Source: an uncultured Gammaproteobacteria bacterium (GTDB lineage Bacteria > Patescibacteriota > Microgenomatia > Levybacterales > UBA12049). From it: a stretch of 64,000 bases of DNA. Below the pieces are notes generated by a model. The model worked only from the letters and a program-made list of their open reading frames with translations. It ran no database searches and was not told the DNA's origin. The stretch lies in assembly GCA_964610465.1 (NCBI GenBank), contig CAZSWA010000005.1:8456-72455 (forward strand). The letters are read 5' to 3'. Made by a program: the position numbers and the translations under genes. Below, one piece after another: positions 1-11,790 of the stretch (position 1 is the first letter of the stretch; each line of letters begins with the position of its first letter).

Positions 1-10
1 AAGTTTGGCT

Positions 11-703
11 ATGAATCAATCAGAGAAAGAAGCATATATGCAGTTGCATGACTCTCTTATGCAAGCTGGCCAACAAGGAGACCAAATTGCTTCGTCAATT
101 CTTTCTGTCACCGATAAAACTTCGATTACTGATATTACAAAGATAGAAGAGCAATTAAGAGAAGCAAAAGAAAAAGGTAATTCCAATGTGCAGGCAGTAC
201 TTGCTCAAACTGAAAGAAAAAAACCACTTAATCTTCCTAATTCCAACAGAATTCAAACAGTAAGCCTTGAGGATTATGAAGCAGTACGTAAAATGTGGGA
301 AGAAAATTATAAAACAGTTCCAGTTCCAGAAGGATGGAGTAATGATAAGAATGGAAGAAAAAGTTGGCTTAAGAAAGAAATTGAGAATATTATGGAAATA
401 ATTAACTTACTTATGTCCAGCGACCCGGAACAACAGGAAGAAGGTTTACGACGTGTACAACGTGTTTTGCCTTTCCTTATGCTTGGAGGTTTTTCAATTG
501 ATGAAATTGTTTCTTACCTGAAGTCAAAAATGGAAGCAGCTAAAGCAGTACTTACCATGCTTGAAGGAGAAGATAGCTCTGATGAAATGGTAGATGAGAA
601 AAATCATTCAGAAGTACCAAATACTATGACAATGTCCCAGGAAGTACCGGATACTACGTTACCTGAAAATACTATTTTGAACAAAAATGAGAATGAAAAA
701 TAA
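11..703 (+). CDS. Hypothetical protein with an N-terminal ~60-aa repeat domain (LHDxLMQ..QQG..IA..IL..T..T.D.D....QLEEAKE.G) shared with the C-terminus of the downstream Clp ATPase. The frame is open to the window edge, so the gene may be 5'-truncated; the ORF track starts at a TTG at 5 and the first ATG is at 11.
   Basis: Long ORF. Internal similarity to two repeats in ORF 753..4130 can be read directly from the translations. No recognisable catalytic motif. Confidence 0.5.
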   Translation: MNQSEKEAYMQLHDSLMQAGQQGDQIASSILSVTDKTSITDITKIEEQLREAKEKGNSNVQAVLAQTERKKPLNLPNSNRIQTVSLEDYEAVRKMWEENYKTVPVPEGWSNDKNGRKSWLKKEIENIMEIINLLMSSDPEQQEEGLRRVQRVLPFLMLGGFSIDEIVSYLKSKMEAAKAVLTMLEGEDSSDEMVDEKNHSEVPNTMTMSQEVPDTTLPENTILNKNENEK

Positions 704-752
704 ATAGATATTGATGTTTCCTGTTTTTTAGTATTTAATAAATAATGAGTCT

Positions 753-3700
753 ATGTTAGGTAGCCTATTTAATCAAAAGAAAAATCCTTCACAACCGCAA
801 GGGGACACGCAACAAATGTCTCCTAATGGGCAACCATATGGACAAAATTCTCAACAATTTGAGAACAATCAATATGCAAATCAGCAATATCAAAATCAAC
901 AGTACCCAAATCAACCGTATCCAAACCAAAACCCACAATATATGCCACAACAAATGCAACCAATGCCAATGCAACAGCAGTCTATGCCAGGGAATAATCC
1001 TCAGACAAATGTAATTAGCTCAAGAATGAACCCTGTGATGCGGCAGAATTTATCTGCATTATCTCATCTTGATACACGTACTACTCAGGCACTTACTCAT
1101 GCACAGGAGGAGACAAGAAGAATTCGTCAGCAATTTATTGAACCTGAACAGCTTTTGTATGGATTATTGTATGATCAGCAAGTATTCAAACTTCTTGAAG
1201 ATTTTAATGTCGATGTGGCCAAACTTTCAAAAGAACTCCAAACCAAAGAGAGAATTGGAACCTTTATGGGGCAGCCGACTCTTAGCAAGACATCACAAGA
1301 AGTATTTGAACAAGCATACAGAGATACTAAAATGAGAGGACAAAGTTTTGTTGTTCCTGAGGATGTATTAGTAACTCTTTTTAACATTAATTTGACTACG
1401 GCAAGTTATCTTCAAGCACAAGGAGTGAAAAAAGAGCAAGTAGTTGAAAAACTTTCCAAAACAATATCTGCGACATACGGCAAAAAAAGCGCACTTGATA
1501 AATATGGTACTGATCTTACAGAACAGGCACGTCAAGGGAAACTTGATCCAGTTGCAGGACGGGATAAAGAACTTGATAGATTGATTCATATTTTACTTCG
1601 TAGAACTAAAAATAATCCTATTATTATAGGGGAGCCGGGAGTTGGGAAAACTGCAATAGTTGAAGGACTTGCAGAAAAGATAGTTTCAGGAAGTGTCCCA
1701 AAGGAGCTTCAGGATAAAAGAATTTTTCAGCTGGATATTTCTGCATTAGTTGCAGGAGCAAGCCATAGAGGTGAGTTTGAAGAGAGACTGAAAGAAGTAA
1801 TTACTGATACACTGGCATCAGCAGGGCACACGATTCTTTTTATTGATGAGATACATACAATTATTGGTACAGGTGACAATGAAGGCTCACTTGACGCATC
1901 AAATATTATAAAACCATATTTAGCCCGGGGACAATTGCAAATTATTGGTGCTACTACAACAACAGAATTTAGAAAGAAATTTGAGAAGGATAAAGCATTT
2001 GAGAGACGTTTCCAGTCAGTACAAGCTGATGAACCGAGTGAAGAGAGCGCAATTGAGATGCTGAAAATTTTAAAACCAAAATATGAAATATTTCATAAAG
2101 TAACTTTTCCAGATGATACCTTAGAGGCAGCAGTAAAACTTTCCAAAAAATATGTCGGAGAGAGATTTTTGCCAGATAAAGCAGTAGATCTTCTTGATGA
2201 AGCAGCATCAGAAGTAAAGCTACAAATCGCAGCTGGAAAACGGCAGGATAACGTAGTGAAAAAAACAGATATCGAAACAGTAGTTAGTACCTGGACTGGA
2301 ATTCCAATTACCAAGTTGACAGAGGATGAAAGTGAAAAGCTCTTACGTCTTGAAGAGCGTATTCACAAACGTCTTGTCGATCAGGAAGAAGCATGCGTTG
2401 CAGTGGCAGAAGCAGTAAGAAGAGGACGTATTGGGCTTGCCAGTGCCAATAGGCCAATTGCTTCTTTTGTGTTCTTAGGTCCGACAGGTGTGGGGAAAAC
2501 AGAACTTGCCAAGACGCTTGCTGAAATACTTTTTGGGAGAGATGATGCAATGGTGAGACTTGATATGAGTGAGTACATGGAGAAACATGAAGTGGCAAAA
2601 CTTATTGGAGCGCCTCCTGGATATGTGGGGTATGAAGAAGGAGGACAATTAACAGAGGCTGTACGGAAAAAACCCTATTCTATTGTACTACTTGATGAAA
2701 TAGAAAAAGCCCACCCTGATGTATTTAATCTTTTGTTGCAGTTATTAGAGGATGGGAGACTGACTGATAATAAAGGGAATACTATCTCGTTTAAAAATAC
2801 TATTGTAATTTGTACTTCTAATATCGGAAGTGCACTTATCCAACAAAGATTAAGCCTTGAAGATCCAAAAATCAAGAAAACTCCTGAGGAATATAATAAA
2901 ACTTTTAAAGAGCTTAACGATGTAGTCAAAGAAGAACTTATCAAATTTTTCAGACCAGAGCTTCTTAATCGTTTTGATGAGGTAGTTATTTTTAAACCTC
3001 TACGGCTTGAACATATGTATGGTATTGCCAAGTTTAGTATCAAAAAAACTGCAGGACTTCTTAAAGAACAAGGGTTTGATTTACAAATTACCGATAAAGC
3101 AATTGAAAAGTTGGCAAAAGATGGCTATGACCCTGTATATGGAGCACGTCCTTTACGTCGTCTTGTGCAAACTGCAGTAGAAAATCCTATCGCCCTTGAA
3201 ATTATTTCCAAGAAATTCGCAGTGGGTGATACTATTGTTATAGATTACGACGAGAATACCAACCAATTTATATTTTCAAAGCCCAACGAAGGGAAAGTAG
3301 CAGCAACAGAAAAATATGATGCACTCGTATATCGCACTGCATTCCGGAGAATAGCAAGTCCTATGGATGTGCAAAATCCAGCTGAGCACAAAATGCTCAC
3401 TGAGCTTCATGATAAACTTATGGCACAAAGTCAACAAAATAATCAAATTGCAGCAGCTATCCTTGCAATTACAGAGATGACCTCAGATGGTGATGTATTG
3501 CGGATGAAACAACAGCTTGAGCAAACAAAAGAACAAGGTGACCCGTTGGCAACAGAAATTCTTCAAACAGTTGAGCAAACAATCATCATGGAAGAATTGT
3601 GGAATCTCAAAGTAGTACTTATGCAGATGATAAATCCTTTGACTGTCTCGAAAGAAAATAAAGAAACGTACACAAAACTACATGATACCGTATTACAGTT

Positions 3701-4130
3701 GAGCCAACAAGGGAATCCACTTGCAGGCGTATTACTTGCTATCAATGAAACAACTCCAGATGCAGATTTACAAAATATAAAACAGCAATTAGAGGAAGCA
3801 AAAGATCAAGGAGATACTACTGCTATTACAATTTTAACTTTAGCAAATCCTTTCCATGATCCAAACGTCAAAGTATCACAACAAGAACAAGCTTCACAAA
3901 ATAATCAAAATCCCCAACCAGTACCACAACAAATGCAACCAATGCCTTCTGACCAAACATATCCTTTTGGTTTGGGTCAGCAAGATGCAAATGCTCCTGA
4001 AACGCCATCTCAAGGTGATATAAGACAACAAATGCCTTTTGATGAAAATAATCAGACAAACCAGCCAATACAAAATGGTATGGCAAATATTTCCTCTTCA
4101 AATGGTATGATGCAATCGGGAAATAATTAG
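753..4130 (+). CDS. Clp/Hsp100-family AAA+ unfoldase with two NBDs. NBD2 is ClpB-like ([11 protein letters not shown]). The M-domain is deleted and there is no ClpP-binding [ILV]G[FL] loop. It has an N-terminal Q/N/Y/P-rich prion-like region, a Clp_N-like region, and a C-terminal extension with two ~60-aa repeats and a Q/N-rich tail. Most pipelines would annotate it as ClpC/ClpB.
   Basis: NBD1 Walker A GEPGVGKT and Walker [13 protein letters not shown]2 Walker A GPTGVGKT, Walker [11 protein letters not shown] and sensor-2 GARPLRR. Only ~14 aa lie between [11 protein letters not shown] and TWTGIP, where ClpB carries the ~120-aa M-domain. N-terminus: [33 protein letters not shown]. Confidence 0.85.
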
Positions 4131-4190: not shown

Positions 4191-5924
4191 ATGGAAGAGG
4201 TGAAAGAGAAAACAACTCCAGCGGAAAAATTCTTTTGGCTGTATTTTAAAAATAATAGAAAAGAAATTTCTCTAGGTGTTTTACTTCTATTTATATTGCT
4301 GTTTTTCATTCTTATCTTTTTTAGTAGAATACATAAGAAATCAACAAGTATTCCTGCACAACCAATACCAACACCTGCACAGACTTCAGAGAAAGTGCCA
4401 GGACAAATTTTGGTTAAATTCAAACGTGCAGTACCCGAGGCAGTTATAGCAGAACACTTACAAGTATATAACGCATCTGTTTCAGGAACGATTAAGGATA
4501 TTGGAGTAAGTATAGTACAGGTACCAAAAGGGCAAGAAGATGCTATACTTACTGCGCTTTCACATGATGCAATTGTTCAATATGTGGAAGCGGATTATTA
4601 TTCCCATGCATTCGCATTTCCAAATGATCCCTATTTCTCAAATCAGTGGGGACTTCATAATACTGCACAAGCCATACAAGGAAAAACAGGAGCATCAAAT
4701 GATGACATTCATGCAGTTGATGCATGGAATGTGACACAAGGTGATGGAATAAAAGTTGCGATTCTTGATACAGGTATTAATCAAAATCATCCTGACTTAG
4801 CATCAAAAATTGTACTACAAAAAATATTTTATACGAATTCTCTTGAAGATAACTTTGGACATGGAACGCATGTTGCCGGTATTATCTCAGCAGTAACCAA
4901 TAATTCTCAAGGAGTTGCAGGTGTTTGTCCAAATTGCCAGCTTATGATTGGGAGAGTATTGGATGATAATGGTAGCGGGCCAACTTCAAATATCGCCACA
5001 GGAGTAACATGGGCTGCAGACAATGGCGCCAAAGTCATCAATATTAGTGCTGGAGATACTGTTTTTGTACAAGCACTTGCAGATGCAATAACATATGCGT
5101 GGAATAAAGGCGTAGTAATTACCGCTGCAGCAGGTAATTCGAACACAACACAAAAATTTTATCCTGCTGCCTATCCTAATGTGATAGCAGTTGCCGCAAC
5201 CGATAATAATGATACAAAAGCGTCTTTTTCAAACTATGGAAGTTGGGTATTAGTAGCTGCTCCTGGAAGTAATATCTTTTCAACTCTTCCTGATCATACA
5301 TATAATATGCAAAAAATGAGCACTCTCAATTTAAATTATGATTATCTTTCTGGTACTTCAATGGCAAGTCCATTTGTTGCAGGTGCTGCTGCATTAGTTT
5401 GGGCATCGCCGTATGGCACATCAAATACAGCAGTCGTACAAAGACTTGAGAATACCGCAGATAAGATAACAGGAACTGGTACCTACTGGAAATATGGACG
5501 AATAAATGTGGCAAATGCAGTAGGTTTTAGTGTAACTACACCAACTGTACAGCCTTTAACTCCACCAACGTCTACTCCTACTCAACAACCAAAACAAACA
5601 ATTGCACCAACTATTCCTCATGTAACACCAACTCCTACCTTGCCTTTTGCAACTCCTACTTTTTATTGCGCTGGGGGAGTAAATTGCCTACCATCAACTA
5701 TTCCATCTCCTACTGTTCCAGTTATCCAAAATACTCCTCGCCCAACTCAAGTTTTTCAAAACGGAACTCCTACTTCAGTGATTACATTTGGAGTACCTAC
5801 TAATGTTCCAGGTATTTTAGGAGGAAGAAATCATGGTGGAAACAATAATAACTTCCAGCGACTTCGAAACTTTCTTATGCAGCTTGTTAAGCTACTCTTA
5901 AAAATGCTTTTTCCATTCTTCTAA
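4191..5924 (+). CDS. Subtilisin-like serine protease (peptidase S8) with an N-terminal TM anchor, an I9-like propeptide and a C-terminal P/T-rich region.
   Basis: Catalytic triad motifs: D (ILDTGI), H (HGTHVAGII), S (GTSMASPFVAGAAALV). Hydrophobic helix LGVLLLFILLFFILIFF near the N-terminus. P/T-rich linker TPPTSTPTQQPKQTIAPTIP. Confidence 0.85.
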   Translation: MEEVKEKTTPAEKFFWLYFKNNRKEISLGVLLLFILLFFILIFFSRIHKKSTSIPAQPIPTPAQTSEKVPGQILVKFKRAVPEAVIAEHLQVYNASVSGTIKDIGVSIVQVPKGQEDAILTALSHDAIVQYVEADYYSHAFAFPNDPYFSNQWGLHNTAQAIQGKTGASNDDIHAVDAWNVTQGDGIKVAILDTGINQNHPDLASKIVLQKIFYTNSLEDNFGHGTHVAGIISAVTNNSQGVAGVCPNCQLMIGRVLDDNGSGPTSNIATGVTWAADNGAKVINISAGDTVFVQALADAITYAWNKGVVITAAAGNSNTTQKFYPAAYPNVIAVAATDNNDTKASFSNYGSWVLVAAPGSNIFSTLPDHTYNMQKMSTLNLNYDYLSGTSMASPFVAGAAALVWASPYGTSNTAVVQRLENTADKITGTGTYWKYGRINVANAVGFSVTTPTVQPLTPPTSTPTQQPKQTIAPTIPHVTPTPTLPFATPTFYCAGGVNCLPSTIPSPTVPVIQNTPRPTQVFQNGTPTSVITFGVPTNVPGILGGRNHGGNNNNFQRLRNFLMQLVKLLLKMLFPFF

Positions 5925-5987: not shown

Positions 5988-6326
5988 ATGAGAGAATATA
6001 TGTTACTTCCTGGAGCATTTTTAAAATTTTGGTTTATTGAAGCGCCTTTGATAATGATAAAGTTTTTCGTATCTCTTAATCAAGCATTTTTCCAATTATT
6101 TTCCTTGTCATTATTTTTAAAAACTTTTTTTAAACCTCTTAAGAATGAATATCGGCCTGGTTTAGTACGGTTTTCAATTATCATGGGCATTGTAGTAAAA
6201 ACTGTATTTATTCTAGTTGACTTACTTTTATTTTCTTTATTACTTAGTGTTGAGCTAATAAGCCTCATTGTGTTTCTCATTTTCCCATTCGTATCTTTGA
6301 TTTTATTGATAATGCCAAACATATGA
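5988..6326 (+). CDS. Small, very hydrophobic predicted membrane protein. It could be an independent gene or the frameshifted N-terminal part of the downstream Clp paralogue.
   Basis: ORF of 112 aa made almost entirely of hydrophobic stretches (LIVFLIFPFVSLILLIM). It ends 4 nt into the next ORF, in a different frame. Confidence 0.3.
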   Translation: MREYMLLPGAFLKFWFIEAPLIMIKFFVSLNQAFFQLFSLSLFLKTFFKPLKNEYRPGLVRFSIIMGIVVKTVFILVDLLLFSLLLSVELISLIVFLIFPFVSLILLIMPNI

Positions 6327-8719
6327 TCACGTATGCCAGACTCTATCATTTCTACCGCACTGCAACACTCCGCAGTATAAGGCTATTAGTATTCTTTCTT
6401 TTACTTTTTGTAATAGTCAATGTAATATCAAGAGGTTTATTTCCTCGGTTTCCTCTTTTTTTGTTAAACCTTTTTATTATGAGTGAAATTTTTTTTCGTT
6501 TTAAAATCGCGCGAACTACACCATATATAAAAGTAACTGCGAATAAAGGAGAAAATCCGCTCATTTCTTTTAGTATGAATGCTCTTTATACGTACTTAGT
6601 GAATCAAAAGTCGTCATCCATTATTGCAAAGCTTATGAGTAATTCTCAAGTTCGTGCAATATTTGAGAAAGCAAATATTCAGGAGAAAGAGTTGTCTCTT
6701 CTTGACTATGAAAAAAATCTACTGGCAAAGACGGCATTTGATGTGGCAAGAAATAGAAATGGCCAATTTGTAACTACAATGGATTTGATAACTGCGTATC
6801 TTCTTGATACAGAAGGACAAACAAAACTACTCTTTAATAAGAAACTCAAGTCAGAAGAATTATATGCTATTTTGCATTGGGCAAGCAAGAATTTTCCTGA
6901 TGAAGAAATGCCCAAGCAGATAGCAATCCATTTATATGGTTCAGGAATTGGTGAATTTCTCACCACCGGATGGACTCCTGAAACAGAGAAATATACTCGT
7001 GAAGCAATATCAGGAGAAAAACCTCTTCTTATTGGCCGTGAAGGAGAATTTAAATCTCTTACTGATACATTATTGAAACCTGAAAACAACAATGTGTTAT
7101 TAGTAGGTGAACAAGGAGTTGGAAAAGAGACACTTGTACAAGCGCTTGCATATTATAGCATTGATAATGCTCTCTCTGCAAAATTAAATGATAAAAAAAT
7201 ACTCGAATTTCTCGTTGGACCATTTATTGCAGGCGCAAAGGAGAGAGGCGAATTGGAAGAACGATTACAGGCAATACTTGCTGAGCTTTCTCATTCAGGA
7301 CAGGTCATTATCTATATTCCTGAATTTCAAAATATTATTGGTGCATCGTCTTACAATCTTGATATTTCAGGAGCACTGCTTCCTTATCTTCATGATGGCA
7401 ATGTGCTTATTATTGCTACTATGACAAACGGGAATTACAAGAATTACATGGAGAAAAATCCCTTAAAGGAAGTATTTGGCATAATTGAATTGAGAGAACC
7501 TGATACACATACTGCATTACAAATGGTGTTTGAAAAAGCATCTGAGATAGAAAAGAAAACAGGTGTTATCCTGAGTTATCGCGCACTCGTTGCTGCAGTT
7601 GAATTTGCCAACCGCTACTTTCAGGATACTGTACTTCCAGGCAGTGCAATCTCACTTCTTGAAGATGTAGCAGCTAGTACTGCAGTATCAGGCAGCAGTC
7701 AGTATGGGAGTTCTCATCGAAAAATCGTTTTGGAGGAAGATGTCACTCGTAAAATAGAAGAGAAAATGCATGTCGCTATTTCAGCTCCTACTGGACAGGA
7801 AAAAGACTTACTCCTTCATCTAGAAGACAAATTACATGAACGGGTTATTGATCAAGTGGATGCAATTACTGCAATAGCAGAAGCAATGCGAAGAGTACGT
7901 TCCGGTATGATAACCTCAACACGGCCCATTTCATTTCTTTTCTTAGGTCCAACAGGTGTTGGGAAAACTGAAACTGCAAAGGCTTTGGCTGATTTATATT
8001 ATGGAGGAGAAAAAAATATGCTACGGCTTGATATGAGTGAATATGGAGACGAAGAGGGAGTAAAAAGACTTTTGGGTGCTGCACCTGGTGAAGGACGAGA
8101 ACGGGGAGAATTAACCGACAAAATTGCTGATAATCCTTCTTCTTTGGTGCTTCTTGATGAATTTGAAAAAGCACACCCTAAGATACTTGATCTTTTTTTA
8201 CAAGTTCTAGAAGATGGAAGACTTACTGATAATAAAGGACGAACAGTATCATTTATCAATACTATTATTATTGCAACATCCAATGCTGGAGCAGAATTCA
8301 TAAGAGAAGAAATCGAGAAGGGAACGCCAATTGATAAAAATTTCCAGCATAGGCTTTTTGAATATATACAATCCAAACTTATCTTCAAACCTGAACTTCT
8401 CAATAGATTTGATGATGTAGTTACTTTCAAGCCCTTGGGTGAAACAGAAGTCACACAAATAGTAAAACTTATGCTCAATAGCATCAGTAAAGCATTATAT
8501 GAACAGGATATTGATGTCGTATTTACTGACAAAGTTATTGCCAAAATTGCCAAAGAAGGATCTGATAAGGAATTTGGCGCTCGACCTCTTAGGCGTTATA
8601 TTCAGGATACAATCGAAGACGTATTGGCAAAGAAGAAACTTGCAGAAGAAATAAAGAGAGGAAACAGAGTATCTCTGACAACTGATGAAAATAATAACTT
8701 ACAGGTAGTTATTAGCTAA
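6323..8719 (+). CDS. Second Clp/Hsp100-family ATPase paralogue with a hydrophobic, possibly membrane-anchoring N-terminus and a Clp_N-like region. NBD1 is degenerate: Walker A is GEQGVGKET and the Walker B DE is replaced (IIYIPEF). NBD2 is intact. There is no M-domain and no ClpP loop.
   Basis: NBD2 Walker [17 protein letters not shown], Walker B LVLLDEFEKAHP, GARPLRR. The NBD1 motifs can be aligned by eye against ORF 753..4130 ([11 protein letters not shown] vs GEQGVGKETLV; ILFIDEIHT vs IIYIPEFQN). Confidence 0.8.
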   Translation: MITYARLYHFYRTATLRSIRLLVFFLLLFVIVNVISRGLFPRFPLFLLNLFIMSEIFFRFKIARTTPYIKVTANKGENPLISFSMNALYTYLVNQKSSSIIAKLMSNSQVRAIFEKANIQEKELSLLDYEKNLLAKTAFDVARNRNGQFVTTMDLITAYLLDTEGQTKLLFNKKLKSEELYAILHWASKNFPDEEMPKQIAIHLYGSGIGEFLTTGWTPETEKYTREAISGEKPLLIGREGEFKSLTDTLLKPENNNVLLVGEQGVGKETLVQALAYYSIDNALSAKLNDKKILEFLVGPFIAGAKERGELEERLQAILAELSHSGQVIIYIPEFQNIIGASSYNLDISGALLPYLHDGNVLIIATMTNGNYKNYMEKNPLKEVFGIIELREPDTHTALQMVFEKASEIEKKTGVILSYRALVAAVEFANRYFQDTVLPGSAISLLEDVAASTAVSGSSQYGSSHRKIVLEEDVTRKIEEKMHVAISAPTGQEKDLLLHLEDKLHERVIDQVDAITAIAEAMRRVRSGMITSTRPISFLFLGPTGVGKTETAKALADLYYGGEKNMLRLDMSEYGDEEGVKRLLGAAPGEGRERGELTDKIADNPSSLVLLDEFEKAHPKILDLFLQVLEDGRLTDNKGRTVSFINTIIIATSNAGAEFIREEIEKGTPIDKNFQHRLFEYIQSKLIFKPELLNRFDDVVTFKPLGETEVTQIVKLMLNSISKALYEQDIDVVFTDKVIAKIAKEGSDKEFGARPLRRYIQDTIEDVLAKKKLAEEIKRGNRVSLTTDENNNLQVVIS

Positions 8720-8769: not shown

Positions 8770-11700
8770 ATGAAAATAAGGAAAATTTTGCTTTTCATTA
8801 TCATAAGTTCTGTTCTCTTGTTTGTTTCAGAAATTTTTTCCCCTTCACAAGTAGTAGCACAAACGATAACCCCGACATCTACTTCCAGTTCAACATATAC
8901 TATAACAGGAAATTTTTTCTACGATACTAATGGAGATTTAAAGAAAGATAATGGAGAGGTGAATACGAACTATATAGATGTAGCCGGATGTAATAATGGA
9001 ACTCTTTCCTATACTACTCCAGGACAATACAGGATAAGTATAATAGGCGGAGGAACGTGTACCATCAATTACGGAAGTATTACATCGCCACCTGCCGGGT
9101 ATCAGATTACTTATCCTTCCGGAAATCCTCATAGTTTTACGGTAACTATTGGTTCTACCTGTAACGTGGATGGAACAACAGGAGGAACATGTAGTGGAGG
9201 AAATATCAGTAATCTTAATATTCCTCTTGGTGCTACTGCTGCACCTACGCTAACACCTACTCCTACATCAGTTCCCGCTACCTATAAAATTTCAGGTACT
9301 GTATTTGTGGATGCAAATAATGATGGAAAATTGGATAATGGAGAAAGTCCCTACAAAGCAAGCACTATTACTATTTCTCTTTCCGGTCCTGTAAATACAT
9401 TTACTACGACCGCAAATGGTGCATATACCTTCTCAAATTTACCTATAGGAACCTATACGCTAACTATGACGGTACCGGCAGGATATAATACAACTTCTGT
9501 TAATCCAGCAACAGTAACGGTGAACGCTAATGCAACGCAAAATTTTGGAGTTAGTAGTAATGTATGTACTGCGGGTAGTGGAGCTTCCGAGGTTATGCTT
9601 ATGTTTGATCATTCACAAAGTATGGCAGATAAAGACCCTGCAACAGGCAATACTAAAATAAGTGAAGCAATAAAAGCAGCACAAACATTTCTTAATCTGC
9701 TCAATCAAAATAATCCTGGGGTAAAAGTAGGTCTTATTGAATTTGCTGCCGCAGATAACTACCCCAATCTTGCTGATACCTCGGTTGTTGTGCCTCTCAT
9801 TCAACTCTCGAGTAACTATTCAAATCTTTCTAATGCTGTGAATCAAATGAAGATTGCATCAACACAGGGTACCTGTTTTGACTGTGCGGTTGATCTTCTC
9901 AACAAAGAACTGAAAGCCAATAGCACTCCCTCTGCAAAACATTTAGCAATTCTTCTCACAGACGGGAAGGCGAATGAAGATATTGCAAATGGTACCAATA
10001 ATGTCGATCCTACCACTGCAGAAAACGCTGCTATGAATTTAGTCAATTATGGTGATAATAATTTAAACATAGATTATTATACTGTTGGGGTTGGGAATGG
10101 GAATAATATCGACCCTGCATTTCTTCAGCAGATTGCAAACTCAACCGGTGGTCAATACTTTAACGATCCAACCAATGGTGATTTAACTTCTATTTACACA
10201 CAAATTGCCGGTAAACTAAATACTGCAGCAATTAAAGGTATGGTATATAAAGATGCCAATAATGATGGCAAGTACGACACAGGTGATACTCCACTGCAAG
10301 GATGGACAGTGCAAAATACTGGACCTTCAGGTAAGCAAACAGCAACAAGTGATAACAATGGCAAATTTTCATTTGGCAATCTCTGTATTGGACAATATAC
10401 TACTCAGGAGACTCTTCAGTCCGGGTGGATACAAACCCAACCGCAAAATCCCAATTTCTGGACTACGCTAGTAACGAGCGGAAATTCATTTAATAATATC
10501 AATTTTGGAAATTTACAAGGATATACTGTTTTAGGAAGTGTATTTGTAGATGTAAATAAAAATACTACTAAAGATAGTGGAGAACCAAATTACACAGGAT
10601 TACCTATACAGATTAACACGAGTGCTCCAGGAGCAACTGTGAGTTACCCAAGTCCTGGTACATTTAAAATAAGCGGAATAACTACAATTAGTGCACCAAT
10701 TAGTGTACAGTTTACAAACGCTTCTACAATACTGAATACAGGGTACCAAATGATTTACCCGTTAGGTACGCCTCCAGCTTTTTCTGTTACTGTAGGTCCG
10801 TCATGTAATATCAAGAGTGTATCAAACGGAGCACAATGTGACGCATCAGGCAATATCTCAAATCTCAATTTTGCTATCAGTAATTCATATCCTTGGATGC
10901 AATCTTCTGATTTAAATATCCGTGATGATTTCGGATTTAGTGACAATATCTCTTCTACTTCTTTGTGCACCGATTATACCTCAAAACCTGATGCATCATC
11001 AGCGAATCCCGGATATCCAGGAATAATTTTTTCTGGGCAAGTAAATGCGTTCTTCTGGCAGGGCAAGGCATCAAAAAAAAATTGGATAGTGGGAAGTTCA
11101 CTTTACCCTGAGGTATTCCAGAGTAGCAGTAATTTAAAAACAGAATACGATTATTTGCTCTCTACTATTAAGAATTCTGGAGCAACTATTACTGATTTTA
11201 CTGCGATTACTGATGCAAGTGGGAATCATACATGTAATAATCTTTCGAATTGTTCATTACCACCTAATCTGGCTCCAGGAGTGTATCAGGCATCAGGAGA
11301 TGTAATACTTACCGGGAGTGGGAGTCCTGTAGCCTATACGTTTTCTGCCAATAACGGACACTATATATTTCTCGTCAATGGAAACATAACGATAAAGGAA
11401 CGAATTGTTACCCCCAATGGGACCAATGCAATATTTTCATCGGCTGGTAATATTATCATTGATAAAACAGTTGGTGCTTCAAGTTTAACTTGCAATGATT
11501 CTCCGGGAGAAATTCAAGGAATTTATAGTGCTGATAACCAATTTATTGTCGATGGCTATCATGATTGTGTTACTCCTCAAGTTGATAGTATATTGACGAT
11601 TGAAGGAACAGTTATTGCCAACGCTGCAAGACAAAATACCCAAGAATCATTCATCTTTAACAATAGAGACTTGTGTGGTAATGACCCAAGTTATCCTGTT

Positions 11701-11790
11701 GTTTTCTTACGAGCTCGTCCTGACTTTATTCTTTCTGCACCTGATGTGGTAAAACAAAATACATTTGTTACACAAGAAGCCTTGCCATAG
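8770..11790 (+). CDS. Large secreted surface protein (~1000 aa). It has a signal peptide, three SdrD-B/Cna-B-like repeat units and a von Willebrand factor A domain with a MIDAS motif.
   Basis: N-terminus MKIRKILLFIIISSVLLFVSEIFSPSQVVAQ. Repeats GTVFVDANNDGKLDNGE, GMVYKDANNDGKYDTGD and GSVFVDVNKNTTKDSGE. vWA DxSxS motif (MFDHSQSM) and LLTDGKANED. Confidence 0.75.
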   Translation: MKIRKILLFIIISSVLLFVSEIFSPSQVVAQTITPTSTSSSTYTITGNFFYDTNGDLKKDNGEVNTNYIDVAGCNNGTLSYTTPGQYRISIIGGGTCTINYGSITSPPAGYQITYPSGNPHSFTVTIGSTCNVDGTTGGTCSGGNISNLNIPLGATAAPTLTPTPTSVPATYKISGTVFVDANNDGKLDNGESPYKASTITISLSGPVNTFTTTANGAYTFSNLPIGTYTLTMTVPAGYNTTSVNPATVTVNANATQNFGVSSNVCTAGSGASEVMLMFDHSQSMADKDPATGNTKISEAIKAAQTFLNLLNQNNPGVKVGLIEFAAADNYPNLADTSVVVPLIQLSSNYSNLSNAVNQMKIASTQGTCFDCAVDLLNKELKANSTPSAKHLAILLTDGKANEDIANGTNNVDPTTAENAAMNLVNYGDNNLNIDYYTVGVGNGNNIDPAFLQQIANSTGGQYFNDPTNGDLTSIYTQIAGKLNTAAIKGMVYKDANNDGKYDTGDTPLQGWTVQNTGPSGKQTATSDNNGKFSFGNLCIGQYTTQETLQSGWIQTQPQNPNFWTTLVTSGNSFNNINFGNLQGYTVLGSVFVDVNKNTTKDSGEPNYTGLPIQINTSAPGATVSYPSPGTFKISGITTISAPISVQFTNASTILNTGYQMIYPLGTPPAFSVTVGPSCNIKSVSNGAQCDASGNISNLNFAISNSYPWMQSSDLNIRDDFGFSDNISSTSLCTDYTSKPDASSANPGYPGIIFSGQVNAFFWQGKASKKNWIVGSSLYPEVFQSSSNLKTEYDYLLSTIKNSGATITDFTAITDASGNHTCNNLSNCSLPPNLAPGVYQASGDVILTGSGSPVAYTFSANNGHYIFLVNGNITIKERIVTPNGTNAIFSSAGNIIIDKTVGASSLTCNDSPGEIQGIYSADNQFIVDGYHDCVTPQVDSILTIEGTVIANAARQNTQESFIFNNRDLCGNDPSYPVVFLRARPDFILSAPDVVKQNTFVTQEALP

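Follow-up and report, generated by a model that had tools for sequence, protein, structure and literature searches.

The clpB gene often lies in or next to the dnaK operon. Other Hsp100 proteins, namely ClpV/TssH and the Francisella ClpB in its type VI secretion system (T6SS), are dedicated to a membrane-associated secretion apparatus and are recruited by a peptide or domain contact, not by ClpP. Extended forms of VirB6, a membrane protein of type IV secretion systems (T4SS), include RvhB6 of the Rickettsiales and TraG of the F plasmid, and surface-exposed tails have reportedly been proposed for some of them. We know of no Clp adaptor that shares a homologous domain with its ATPase. Here we describe a repeat domain at the 5' end of a 64,000-nt stretch of contig CAZSWA010000005.1 (the whole stretch is called the window). 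The repeat occurs in the tail of a modular, VirB6/TrbL-like membrane protein and again, in two copies, at the C-terminus of the Clp ATPase encoded by the next gene. It belongs to a family specific to Levybacteria (Patescibacteria), and we propose that it may couple the unfoldase to the membrane protein.

The window Clp resembles ClpB, ClpC and ClpA in having Clp_N, two AAA+ rings and D2-small, and it resembles ClpB in that genes of its type lie in or next to the dnaK operon. It differs from other Hsp100 proteins by the addition of an N-terminal peptide with a disordered linker, a disordered C-terminal tail and, in its clade, two to five repeats after D2-small. Like ClpV/TssH, it is encoded together with genes for a putative membrane-associated apparatus. 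Whereas ClpV recognises the sheath via its N-domain, the neighbour here is a VirB6-like membrane protein, and no T6SS families were detected among the neighbouring genes scanned, those identified being the dnaK operon and the genes for a pilin, a subtilase and a VWA protein. The membrane protein may share with VirB6/TrbL an N-out polytopic core of about five transmembrane (TM) helices with a large loop outside the cell; it has a long, hydrophilic extension at its C-terminus, and a gene for a VirB2-like pilin lies beside its own. In contrast to VirB6/TrbL, the Levybacteria gene is embedded in a heat-shock operon and its extension consists of a new repeat and a new domain. The arrangement also recalls the Clp adaptors MecA, ClpS, McsB and SspB, where the product of a neighbouring gene directs an Hsp100 to a place or client. 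The partner here, however, is a large membrane protein and not a small soluble adaptor, and the open reading frame (ORF) at 2..700 had no match to adaptor families in Pfam or NCBIfam.

The repeat is shared by a modular membrane protein and a Clp ATPase

The features of the two genes are as follows (HMM, hidden Markov model; AF2, AlphaFold2; pLDDT, predicted local distance difference test).

2..703, + strand: 3' end (last module, 233 codons and stop) of the VirB6/TrbL-like modular membrane protein gene, continuing beyond the window edge
2..217, + strand: repeat unit in the membrane-protein tail, two helical hairpins (repeat HMM domain E = 8e-32; AF2 helices)
236..562, + strand: conserved C-terminal helical module domain, NRIQTVSLEDYEAVRKMW ... 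LPFLMLGGFS ... YLKSK (domain HMM E = 9e-56)
563..700, + strand: acidic, disordered C-terminal tail of the membrane protein (pLDDT < 50, residues 194-233)
753..4130, + strand: Hsp100/Clp double-ring AAA+ ATPase, 1125 aa, ClpB/ClpC-like (Pfam, PDB alignments)
753..782, + strand: Clp N-terminal peptide, M[FL]GN[LI]F.QKK in orthologues (conservation)
783-~1052, + strand: disordered Q/N/P-rich linker after the N-terminal peptide
1053..3302, + strand: Clp core with Clp_N, D1, D2 and D2-small (Pfam)
1629-1652 and 2478-2501, + strand: Clp Walker A motifs (residues 293 and 576)
3342..3578, + strand: Clp C-terminal repeat unit 1 (repeat HMM domain E = 1e-35)
3618..3851, + strand: Clp C-terminal repeat unit 2 (repeat HMM domain E = 6.5e-34)
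3852..4127, + strand: disordered Q/N/P-rich Clp C-terminal tail with a short conserved motif at 3951-3980

The first ~70 residues of the ORF at 11..703 align to residues 875-942 and 970-1038 of the Clp ATPase. BLASTP with composition-based statistics gave E-values of 1e-11 and 5e-12 for the two alignments, at 35-37% identity. Smith-Waterman scores for the window copies were 131-140, compared to 28-31 ± 5.5 for 2000 shuffles, none of which reached the observed score (z = 17.6-19.8). The original prediction, made by a reader of the sequence, had been that a repeat of ~60 aa is common to the upstream ORF and the Clp C-terminus in three copies. The shared repeat and the copy number were confirmed, while the length had to be revised to ~80 residues, once the conserved [IV]-x-N-P lead-in is counted. 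The three copies show no similarity at the DNA level, suggesting that they diverged long ago. No further copies were found elsewhere in the window.

The upstream ORF had been taken for a small protein. No in-frame stop lies upstream of 11..703 within the window, and the frame is open from base 2. The exact Clp protein is present on four public contigs, of which two were fetched (L001 and L002, the same contig from two sequencing runs). On both, the upstream reading frame continues for 507 nt more without a stop until the contig ends, which gives a protein of at least 402 aa. The added part holds an earlier, degenerate repeat copy, a conserved leader (IPTIRDIVQYETTLLSKD...KIANP) and the end of the preceding module. 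As the full-length homologues are all large membrane proteins, the small protein was rejected as an artefact of the window edge. The two fetched contigs share their first base, which falls within the modular gene 507 nt before the window starts; this suggests that assembly breaks on the internal module repeats of this gene.

An uncharacterised family of helical repeats

The extent of the family was determined by an exhaustive search of 1.84 billion protein cluster representatives with a seven-row repeat profile. It matched 132 proteins at E ≤ 1e-3 and 108 at E ≤ 1e-10, with up to 18 copies per protein; a word-indexed search with an 11-unit repeat alignment had returned nothing, a limitation of the word index. 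Four of the 132 are weak matches to unrelated repeat proteins (a Sel1 protein, a contractile-injection tape-measure protein, a STAND NTPase and one other), giving a net size of ~128 protein clusters. The consensus of 175 full-length units is ..qIANP..v.s..ere.yt.Lhe.L.keSq.GN.LAtsILsv.e.Ts..eiekl.eqL.eAk.kGnpLA..iLs. The positions conserved across the family, N-P, G-N and A...L, are kept in the Clp units. No family match to the repeat was found in Pfam, NCBIfam, PADLOC, PHROGs or the sequences of the PDB, and the Clp tail likewise matched no family in the first four of these. The PADLOC (anti-phage defence) and PHROG (phage) models gave no matches, and the locus is chromosomal and syntenic across the whole lineage. 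Sequence-profile searches of the PDB with the repeat, the module and the TM domain produced chance-level matches only; the best of them, to a helical repeat designed de novo, covered 25 residues at E = 8.6e-4.

The AF2 model of the window module, computed with six homologous modules, had a mean pLDDT of 73.9. In this model the repeat unit consists of four helices, arranged as two long-short hairpins (6-24/28-34 and 42-57/61-70, pLDDT 75-80). A Foldseek search of the PDB with the module model returned nothing better than E = 0.59. The half-units, of ~33 aa, carry the signature ...A..+G[ND]..A...L with a G-[ND] turn and resemble Sel1-like repeats, and the repeat profile matched a bona fide Sel1 protein, P0129, at E = 4.6e-5. 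Half-unit length and the helix-turn-helix signature recall Sel1/TPR repeats, whose hairpins have 34-40 residues with conserved small residues at the turn. The present family differs in that each unit always joins two dissimilar hairpins and opens with an N-P lead-in. We did not accept the repeat as a Sel1 member, given an hhalign probability of only 42% and no Pfam Sel1 match, and kept the resemblance as a lead.

These results show that the repeat is a specific, uncharacterised domain family; it is lineage-specific and predicted to be all-helical. The original prediction had considered an uncharacterised family and had looked to the candidate phyla radiation (CPR) for it; both guesses were right, the cluster belonging to Levybacteria. 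No description of the cluster or the repeat was found in the literature.

Architecture and predicted topology of the modular membrane protein

In Levybacteria the repeat is housed mainly in the C-terminal tail of a VirB6/TrbL-like membrane protein of very large size. Full-length homologues (among P0001-P0136) are membrane proteins of 0.7-2.8 kaa with an N-terminal polytopic domain. A word-indexed search returned only four homologues, all modular, and one of these, P0004, starts with a polytopic membrane domain. In an architecture census with local HMMs, about 85 representatives had a Sec-type signal peptide and 6-9 hydrophobic segments over ~430 aa, followed by one to five modules. Each module is made up of a leader (...P-T-x-R-D-I-x-x-Y-E...R-I-A-N-P), one to six repeats and a conserved ~110-aa helical domain (N-R-I-Q-T-V-S-L-E-D-Y-E...L-P-F-L-L-L-G-G-F-S). 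The remaining proteins of the census were mostly fragments, and the repeat was combined with a Clp core only in P0022 and P0023. The ~110-aa domain has 30 invariant columns across seven modules, is modelled by AF2 as a helical bundle (pLDDT ~90) and matched nothing in Pfam, NCBIfam, PADLOC, PHROGs or the PDB.

TrbL/VirB6 (PF04610) was the sole Pfam family to recur in searches with the membrane domain, matching 22 of 43 aligned N-terminal domains at E ≤ 0.1 (best E = 1.2e-5). AF2 predicts five long helices in this domain (81-110, 115-153, 194-240, 242-279 and 320-353). Net negative charge is found at the mature N-terminus and in the Cys-pair loop. Positive charge marks the short turn between TM1 and TM2 and the one that follows the third long helix, and the juxtamembrane C-terminal segment is net positive (K+R 8.3 compared to D+E 3.4). 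The loops thus show a positive-inside pattern that fits an N-out/C-in orientation. Together, the charge pattern and the five AF2 helices fit a VirB6 topology, suggesting that the modules, and with them the whole tail, lie in the cytoplasm. From these models we infer that the protein comprises a signal peptide, an extracytoplasmic N-domain and five long TM helices, followed by the modules.

The Clp ATPase and the origin of its repeats

By its domain content, with two AAA+ modules, Walker motifs, Clp_N and D2-small, the downstream gene product is classed as an Hsp100/Clp class-I AAA+ ATPase. Its Pfam matches were AAA (2.6e-23), AAA_2 (8.5e-72), AAA_lid_9 (1e-24), ClpB_D2-small (6.4e-22) and Clp_N (1e-8), and the closest PDB sequences were ClpB and ClpC (E ~1e-209). 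It scored below the cut-offs of the NCBIfam equivalogs for ClpB (895 compared to 1232 bits), ClpA (741 compared to 993) and TssH (TIGR03345, 673 compared to 885). Unlike ClpB and ClpC, the window Clp has no M-domain, the coiled coil regulated by DnaK or MecA: the alignments skip residues 400-526 of ClpB and 389-465 of ClpC while the query is contiguous, and ClpA aligns as a single collinear stretch. Unlike ClpA and ClpC, it has no ClpP-docking loop, since no [ILV]G[FL] tripeptide occurs in D2 between NTIVICTSN and NRFDEVV, or from the TSN to the FRPE motifs. The protein is an Hsp100 that has lost the two usual regulatory handles and carries terminal peptides and repeats instead.

The N-terminal motif M[FL]GN[LI]F.QKK is present in 58 of the 61 full-length syntenic Clp orthologues listed and, judged from its conservation, looks like a short linear docking motif. 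In the orthologues (L004-L085) a disordered P/Q/N-rich linker of 40-180 aa separates the peptide from Clp_N. All orthologues also have a disordered P/Q-rich C-terminal tail of roughly 50-180 residues. The tail motif of the window (3951-3980), YPFG.GQ, is common to L004, L008, L010 and L016, and L009 has NFPFGTAQ. Tail motifs are clade-specific and include, besides YPFG.GQ, DGTQMQP, NPPFL and, at the very C-terminus, NAYNYSGIP..RP.GYVSPQTRQEE[VI]E. The two low-complexity tails of the window Clp have a common 44-nt segment (924-967 and 3903-3946, 82% identity) that encodes PQQMQPMP in both. At three loci two overlapping ORFs take the place of an intact syntenic Clp (L005 1996-5012, L032 5646-8941 and L050 9634-13292), with unrelated sequence after the D1 lid in L005; a frameshift, an insertion or an intein could be the cause.

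Clps with the repeat were found in 10 GTDB species, in the metagenome contig L004 and in the window. They carry two to five copies, located between D2-small and the disordered tail. About 50 of the ~61 orthologous syntenic Clps have no repeat, an absence that the original prediction had named as grounds for its refutation. In a neighbour-joining tree of 61 Clp cores, the 12 repeat-bearers form one clade nested among repeat-less orthologues, with the window as its earliest branch; the repeat on Clp is a derived feature of this monophyletic sub-clade. The Clp units are positional orthologues, with a best cross-genome Clp match at 40-79% identity compared to 26-47% to the units of their own neighbour. 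Unit 1 of the window reaches at most 47% identity to its nearest counterparts in the Clps of other genomes. Because Clp units are closer across genomes than to the neighbouring gene, the sequences point to one old acquisition, presumably from the adjacent gene, retained since and without ongoing gene conversion. Recent gene conversion between the two neighbours was likewise rejected, as there is no DNA similarity and the Clp units are closer to the Clp units of other genomes.

Conserved gene order

To define the neighbourhood, one genome per GTDB species was scanned, which yielded at least 124 relatives, and the best 80 loci were used for a gene-order census. The modular membrane-protein gene was detected, on the + strand, at 78 of the 80. 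A VirB2-like pilin gene lies directly upstream of it at 68 loci; its matches to PF18895 (T4SS_pilin) are around the threshold, at 25.8-28 bits compared to a cut-off of 26.6. In 51 loci dnaK is located upstream on the same strand, usually as hrcA-grpE-dnaK-dnaJ, and in 61 the Clp gene follows downstream on the same strand, within 500 nt of the modular gene in 56. The conserved order of the cluster is hrcA-grpE-dnaK-(dnaJ)-VirB2-like pilin-modular membrane protein-Clp-(S8 protease)-small TM protein-TM-anchored Clp. The synteny of the modular gene and Clp in 61 of 80 genomes strongly suggests a functional link between them, as had been predicted for the ATPase and its neighbour.

Loci with informative titles were mostly Levybacteria/Levyibacteriota or 'Patescibacteria group'. 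Among L007, L009, L011 and about 45 other loci, many come from third-party annotation (TPA) metagenome-assembled genomes that bear the title 'uncultured Gammaproteobacteria', while the titles of a few name Limnocylindrales, Sulfotelmatobacter or Acidiferrales; all four look like placeholder or wrong taxonomic labels. A 2025 survey of T4SS in Patescibacteria reported that pilin arrays are abundant and VirB6 homologues scarce in Microgenomatia, possibly owing to extreme sequence divergence (PMC12102498). It makes no mention of this cluster, Clp or DnaK.

Proposed role of the repeats and alternatives

We favour, with a probability of roughly 0.55, the interpretation that the repeats are cytoplasmic interaction modules coupling the unfoldase to the VirB6-like membrane protein in the Levybacteria heat-shock operon. 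In such an arrangement, the repeats would be protein- or peptide-binding scaffolds in the cytoplasm. The membrane-protein tail would bring the Clp hexamer to the membrane, probably together with the DnaK system, and there the unfoldase would act on a membrane-associated client; candidates are the co-encoded pilin or the cargo of the VirB6-like protein. Most Clp orthologues are syntenic yet have no repeat, so the general contact cannot be homotypic and a universal Clp feature is needed. The ancestral contact would have to use such a feature, the best candidate ligand being the N-terminal MFGNLF.QKK peptide on its flexible linker. A working analogy, hypothetical here, is provided by TPR-EEVD co-chaperones such as Hop and CHIP on Hsp70/Hsp90 tails, in which a repeat scaffold captures a short terminal chaperone peptide. 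Within the repeat-bearing sub-clade, the Clp repeats might bind the same ligand or stack on the membrane-protein repeats, providing added avidity or self-regulation. They may alternatively regulate self-association in place of the lost M-domain. The original prediction had envisaged a small adaptor or anti-adaptor docking onto the ATPase; the partner is instead a giant polytopic membrane protein of VirB6/TrbL-like type, of which 2..703 encodes the C-terminal module.

Several observations weigh against coupling of this kind. The two TrbL/VirB6 bit scores seen, 15.9 and 21.7, are below the gathering threshold of 25.9, and the other matches are known by E-value only. The TM domain had no sequence or fold match in the PDB (Foldseek, none at E < 3). 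Its AF2 model is of low confidence (pLDDT 58.7), and a reading with six TM segments would put the tail outside the cell. Unlike at VirB6/TrbL loci, no VirB4, VirD4 or other T4SS ATPase or further T4SS gene was found within 10 kb at L010, a complete Levybacteria chromosome, where the flanks hold the dnaK operon and genes for Clp, a bestrophin-like protein, a cupredoxin and a UvrD-type helicase-nuclease. The likeness of the repeat to Sel1 units is weak, as the alignment to those of P0129 behind the hhalign value covers 21 columns, and neither the ORF, nor the Clp tail, nor any of the 11 units matched Pfam Sel1 or TPR models even at E ≤ 10. The choice of the Clp N-terminal peptide as ligand is a guess from conservation, and the true element that binds Clp or DnaK could be, in place of the repeat, the C-terminal module domain, which is highly conserved.

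One alternative is direct homotypic docking, as the original prediction suggested, in which the C-terminal repeats of Clp pair or stack with those of the neighbour and so tether the hexamer. The same domain does occur in adjacent, co-oriented genes, helical hairpin repeats commonly stack, and the Clp copies have been retained in 12 lineages with two to five in each. As a general mode of coupling it is contradicted by the ~50 of ~61 syntenic Clps without a repeat. There is also no sign of pairwise co-evolution, given that the Clp units are 26-47% identical to those of their own neighbour and 33-49% to those of other genomes. We regard docking of this type as unlikely overall, and as possible within the repeat-bearing sub-clade. 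We give a similarly low probability to accretion without contact, by which Clp would have taken up the helical module of its neighbour for client recognition, oligomer regulation or as a spacer before the tail. This would agree with a single acquisition in one clade, with the divergence of the Clp units from those of the donor and with orthologues that work without repeats. However, the two genes were tightly paired before the acquisition took place and remain so in 61 of 80 genomes, making a shared functional context the simpler assumption, and the Clp units keep the conserved positions of the family.

A location of the tail outside the cytoplasm, exposed on the surface, would mean that the domain shared with a cytoplasmic ATPase reflects no more than the common ancestry of a stable fold. 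Counted naively, the six hydrophobic segments that follow the signal peptide leave the C-terminus outside, and the low confidence of the TM-domain model leaves room for this. Six TM segments, however, break the positive-inside rule twice, whereas five helices fit both the rule and the AF2 model; in addition, the same fold clearly functions in the cytoplasm on Clp and no cysteines were present in the tail copies read. We therefore consider an external tail improbable. A coiled-coil or low-complexity artefact had been named as a finding that could overturn the shared repeat. The region is indeed Q/E/K/A-rich and helical, and single units match coiled-coil Pfam families weakly (E = 0.001-0.1). 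The artefact was rejected with near certainty on the composition-corrected BLAST E-values of ~1e-11, on z-scores of 18-20 against shuffles and on the profile search, which proved specific and retrieved one coherent family with conserved N-P, G-N and A...L positions; the predicted hairpins, moreover, have turns and do not form one continuous coil.

If the coupling we favour exists, it may form part of a larger assembly, although we consider what follows speculative and unlikely. Levybacteria might possess an unrecognised membrane machine made up of a VirB2-like pilin, a VirB6-like channel or platform and a further Clp anchored in the membrane; the cytoplasmic repeat array of the VirB6-like protein would recruit an M-domain-less Hsp100 together with the DnaK system of the same operon. 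As the motor, the unfoldase would stand in for VirB4, extracting pilin or pushing unfolded cargo across the membrane, and the shared repeat would serve as a docking code. Such a machine would be a T4SS-derived system for export or dislocation, driven by chaperones and with a loose likeness to the Hrd1-Sel1L-Cdc48 system of endoplasmic-reticulum-associated degradation (ERAD).

The components are of known kinds: the repeat is of a helical-hairpin type, the Clp is an Hsp100 that carries an accessory domain, and the membrane protein resembles an extended VirB6. Their context is unusual and well conserved. The cluster provides a concrete and testable link between a T4SS-derived membrane protein and an Hsp100 unfoldase, and two new domain families emerge from it, namely the repeat and the ~110-aa domain of the modules. 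Patescibacteria genomes are tiny, yet this lineage keeps multi-kilobase genes for repeat-bearing membrane proteins wired into a core heat-shock operon, which suggests an important function, possibly tied to an episymbiotic lifestyle. Should the repeats be a docking code, they would represent a new way of localising a Clp ATPase; should they not, they are still a clean case of domain transfer between neighbouring genes.

Other genes of the cluster

Downstream of the Clp gene the window contains the following genes.

4191-5924: S8 subtilase carrying a TM segment at its N-terminus and a fervidolysin-like prodomain
5988-6326: ~112-aa hydrophobic protein, overlapping the start of the second Clp-like ATPase
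6323-8719: second Clp-like ATPase with N-terminal hydrophobic, apparently transmembrane segments
8770-11790: VWA/SdrD_B/SpaA-domain protein

The four genes recur further downstream in related loci as they do in the window. The S8 subtilase and the VWA/SdrD_B/SpaA protein are found in the cluster of many genomes, and the pair of ~112-aa TM protein and TM-anchored second Clp is present downstream in most of the longer related loci. D1 of the second Clp-like ATPase has no Pfam AAA match and shows weak AAA_16 and lid matches. In some loci dnaJ has moved to directly after the S8 protease.

Additional pilin-like genes were observed at several loci. Longer forms, of 237-440 aa with PF18895 at the C-terminus, lie divergently upstream of hrcA in L010 (1937-2653, - strand), L011, L020, L037 and L040. 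In L038, L052, L053, L058 and L060, tandem pilin-like genes precede the VirB6-like gene.

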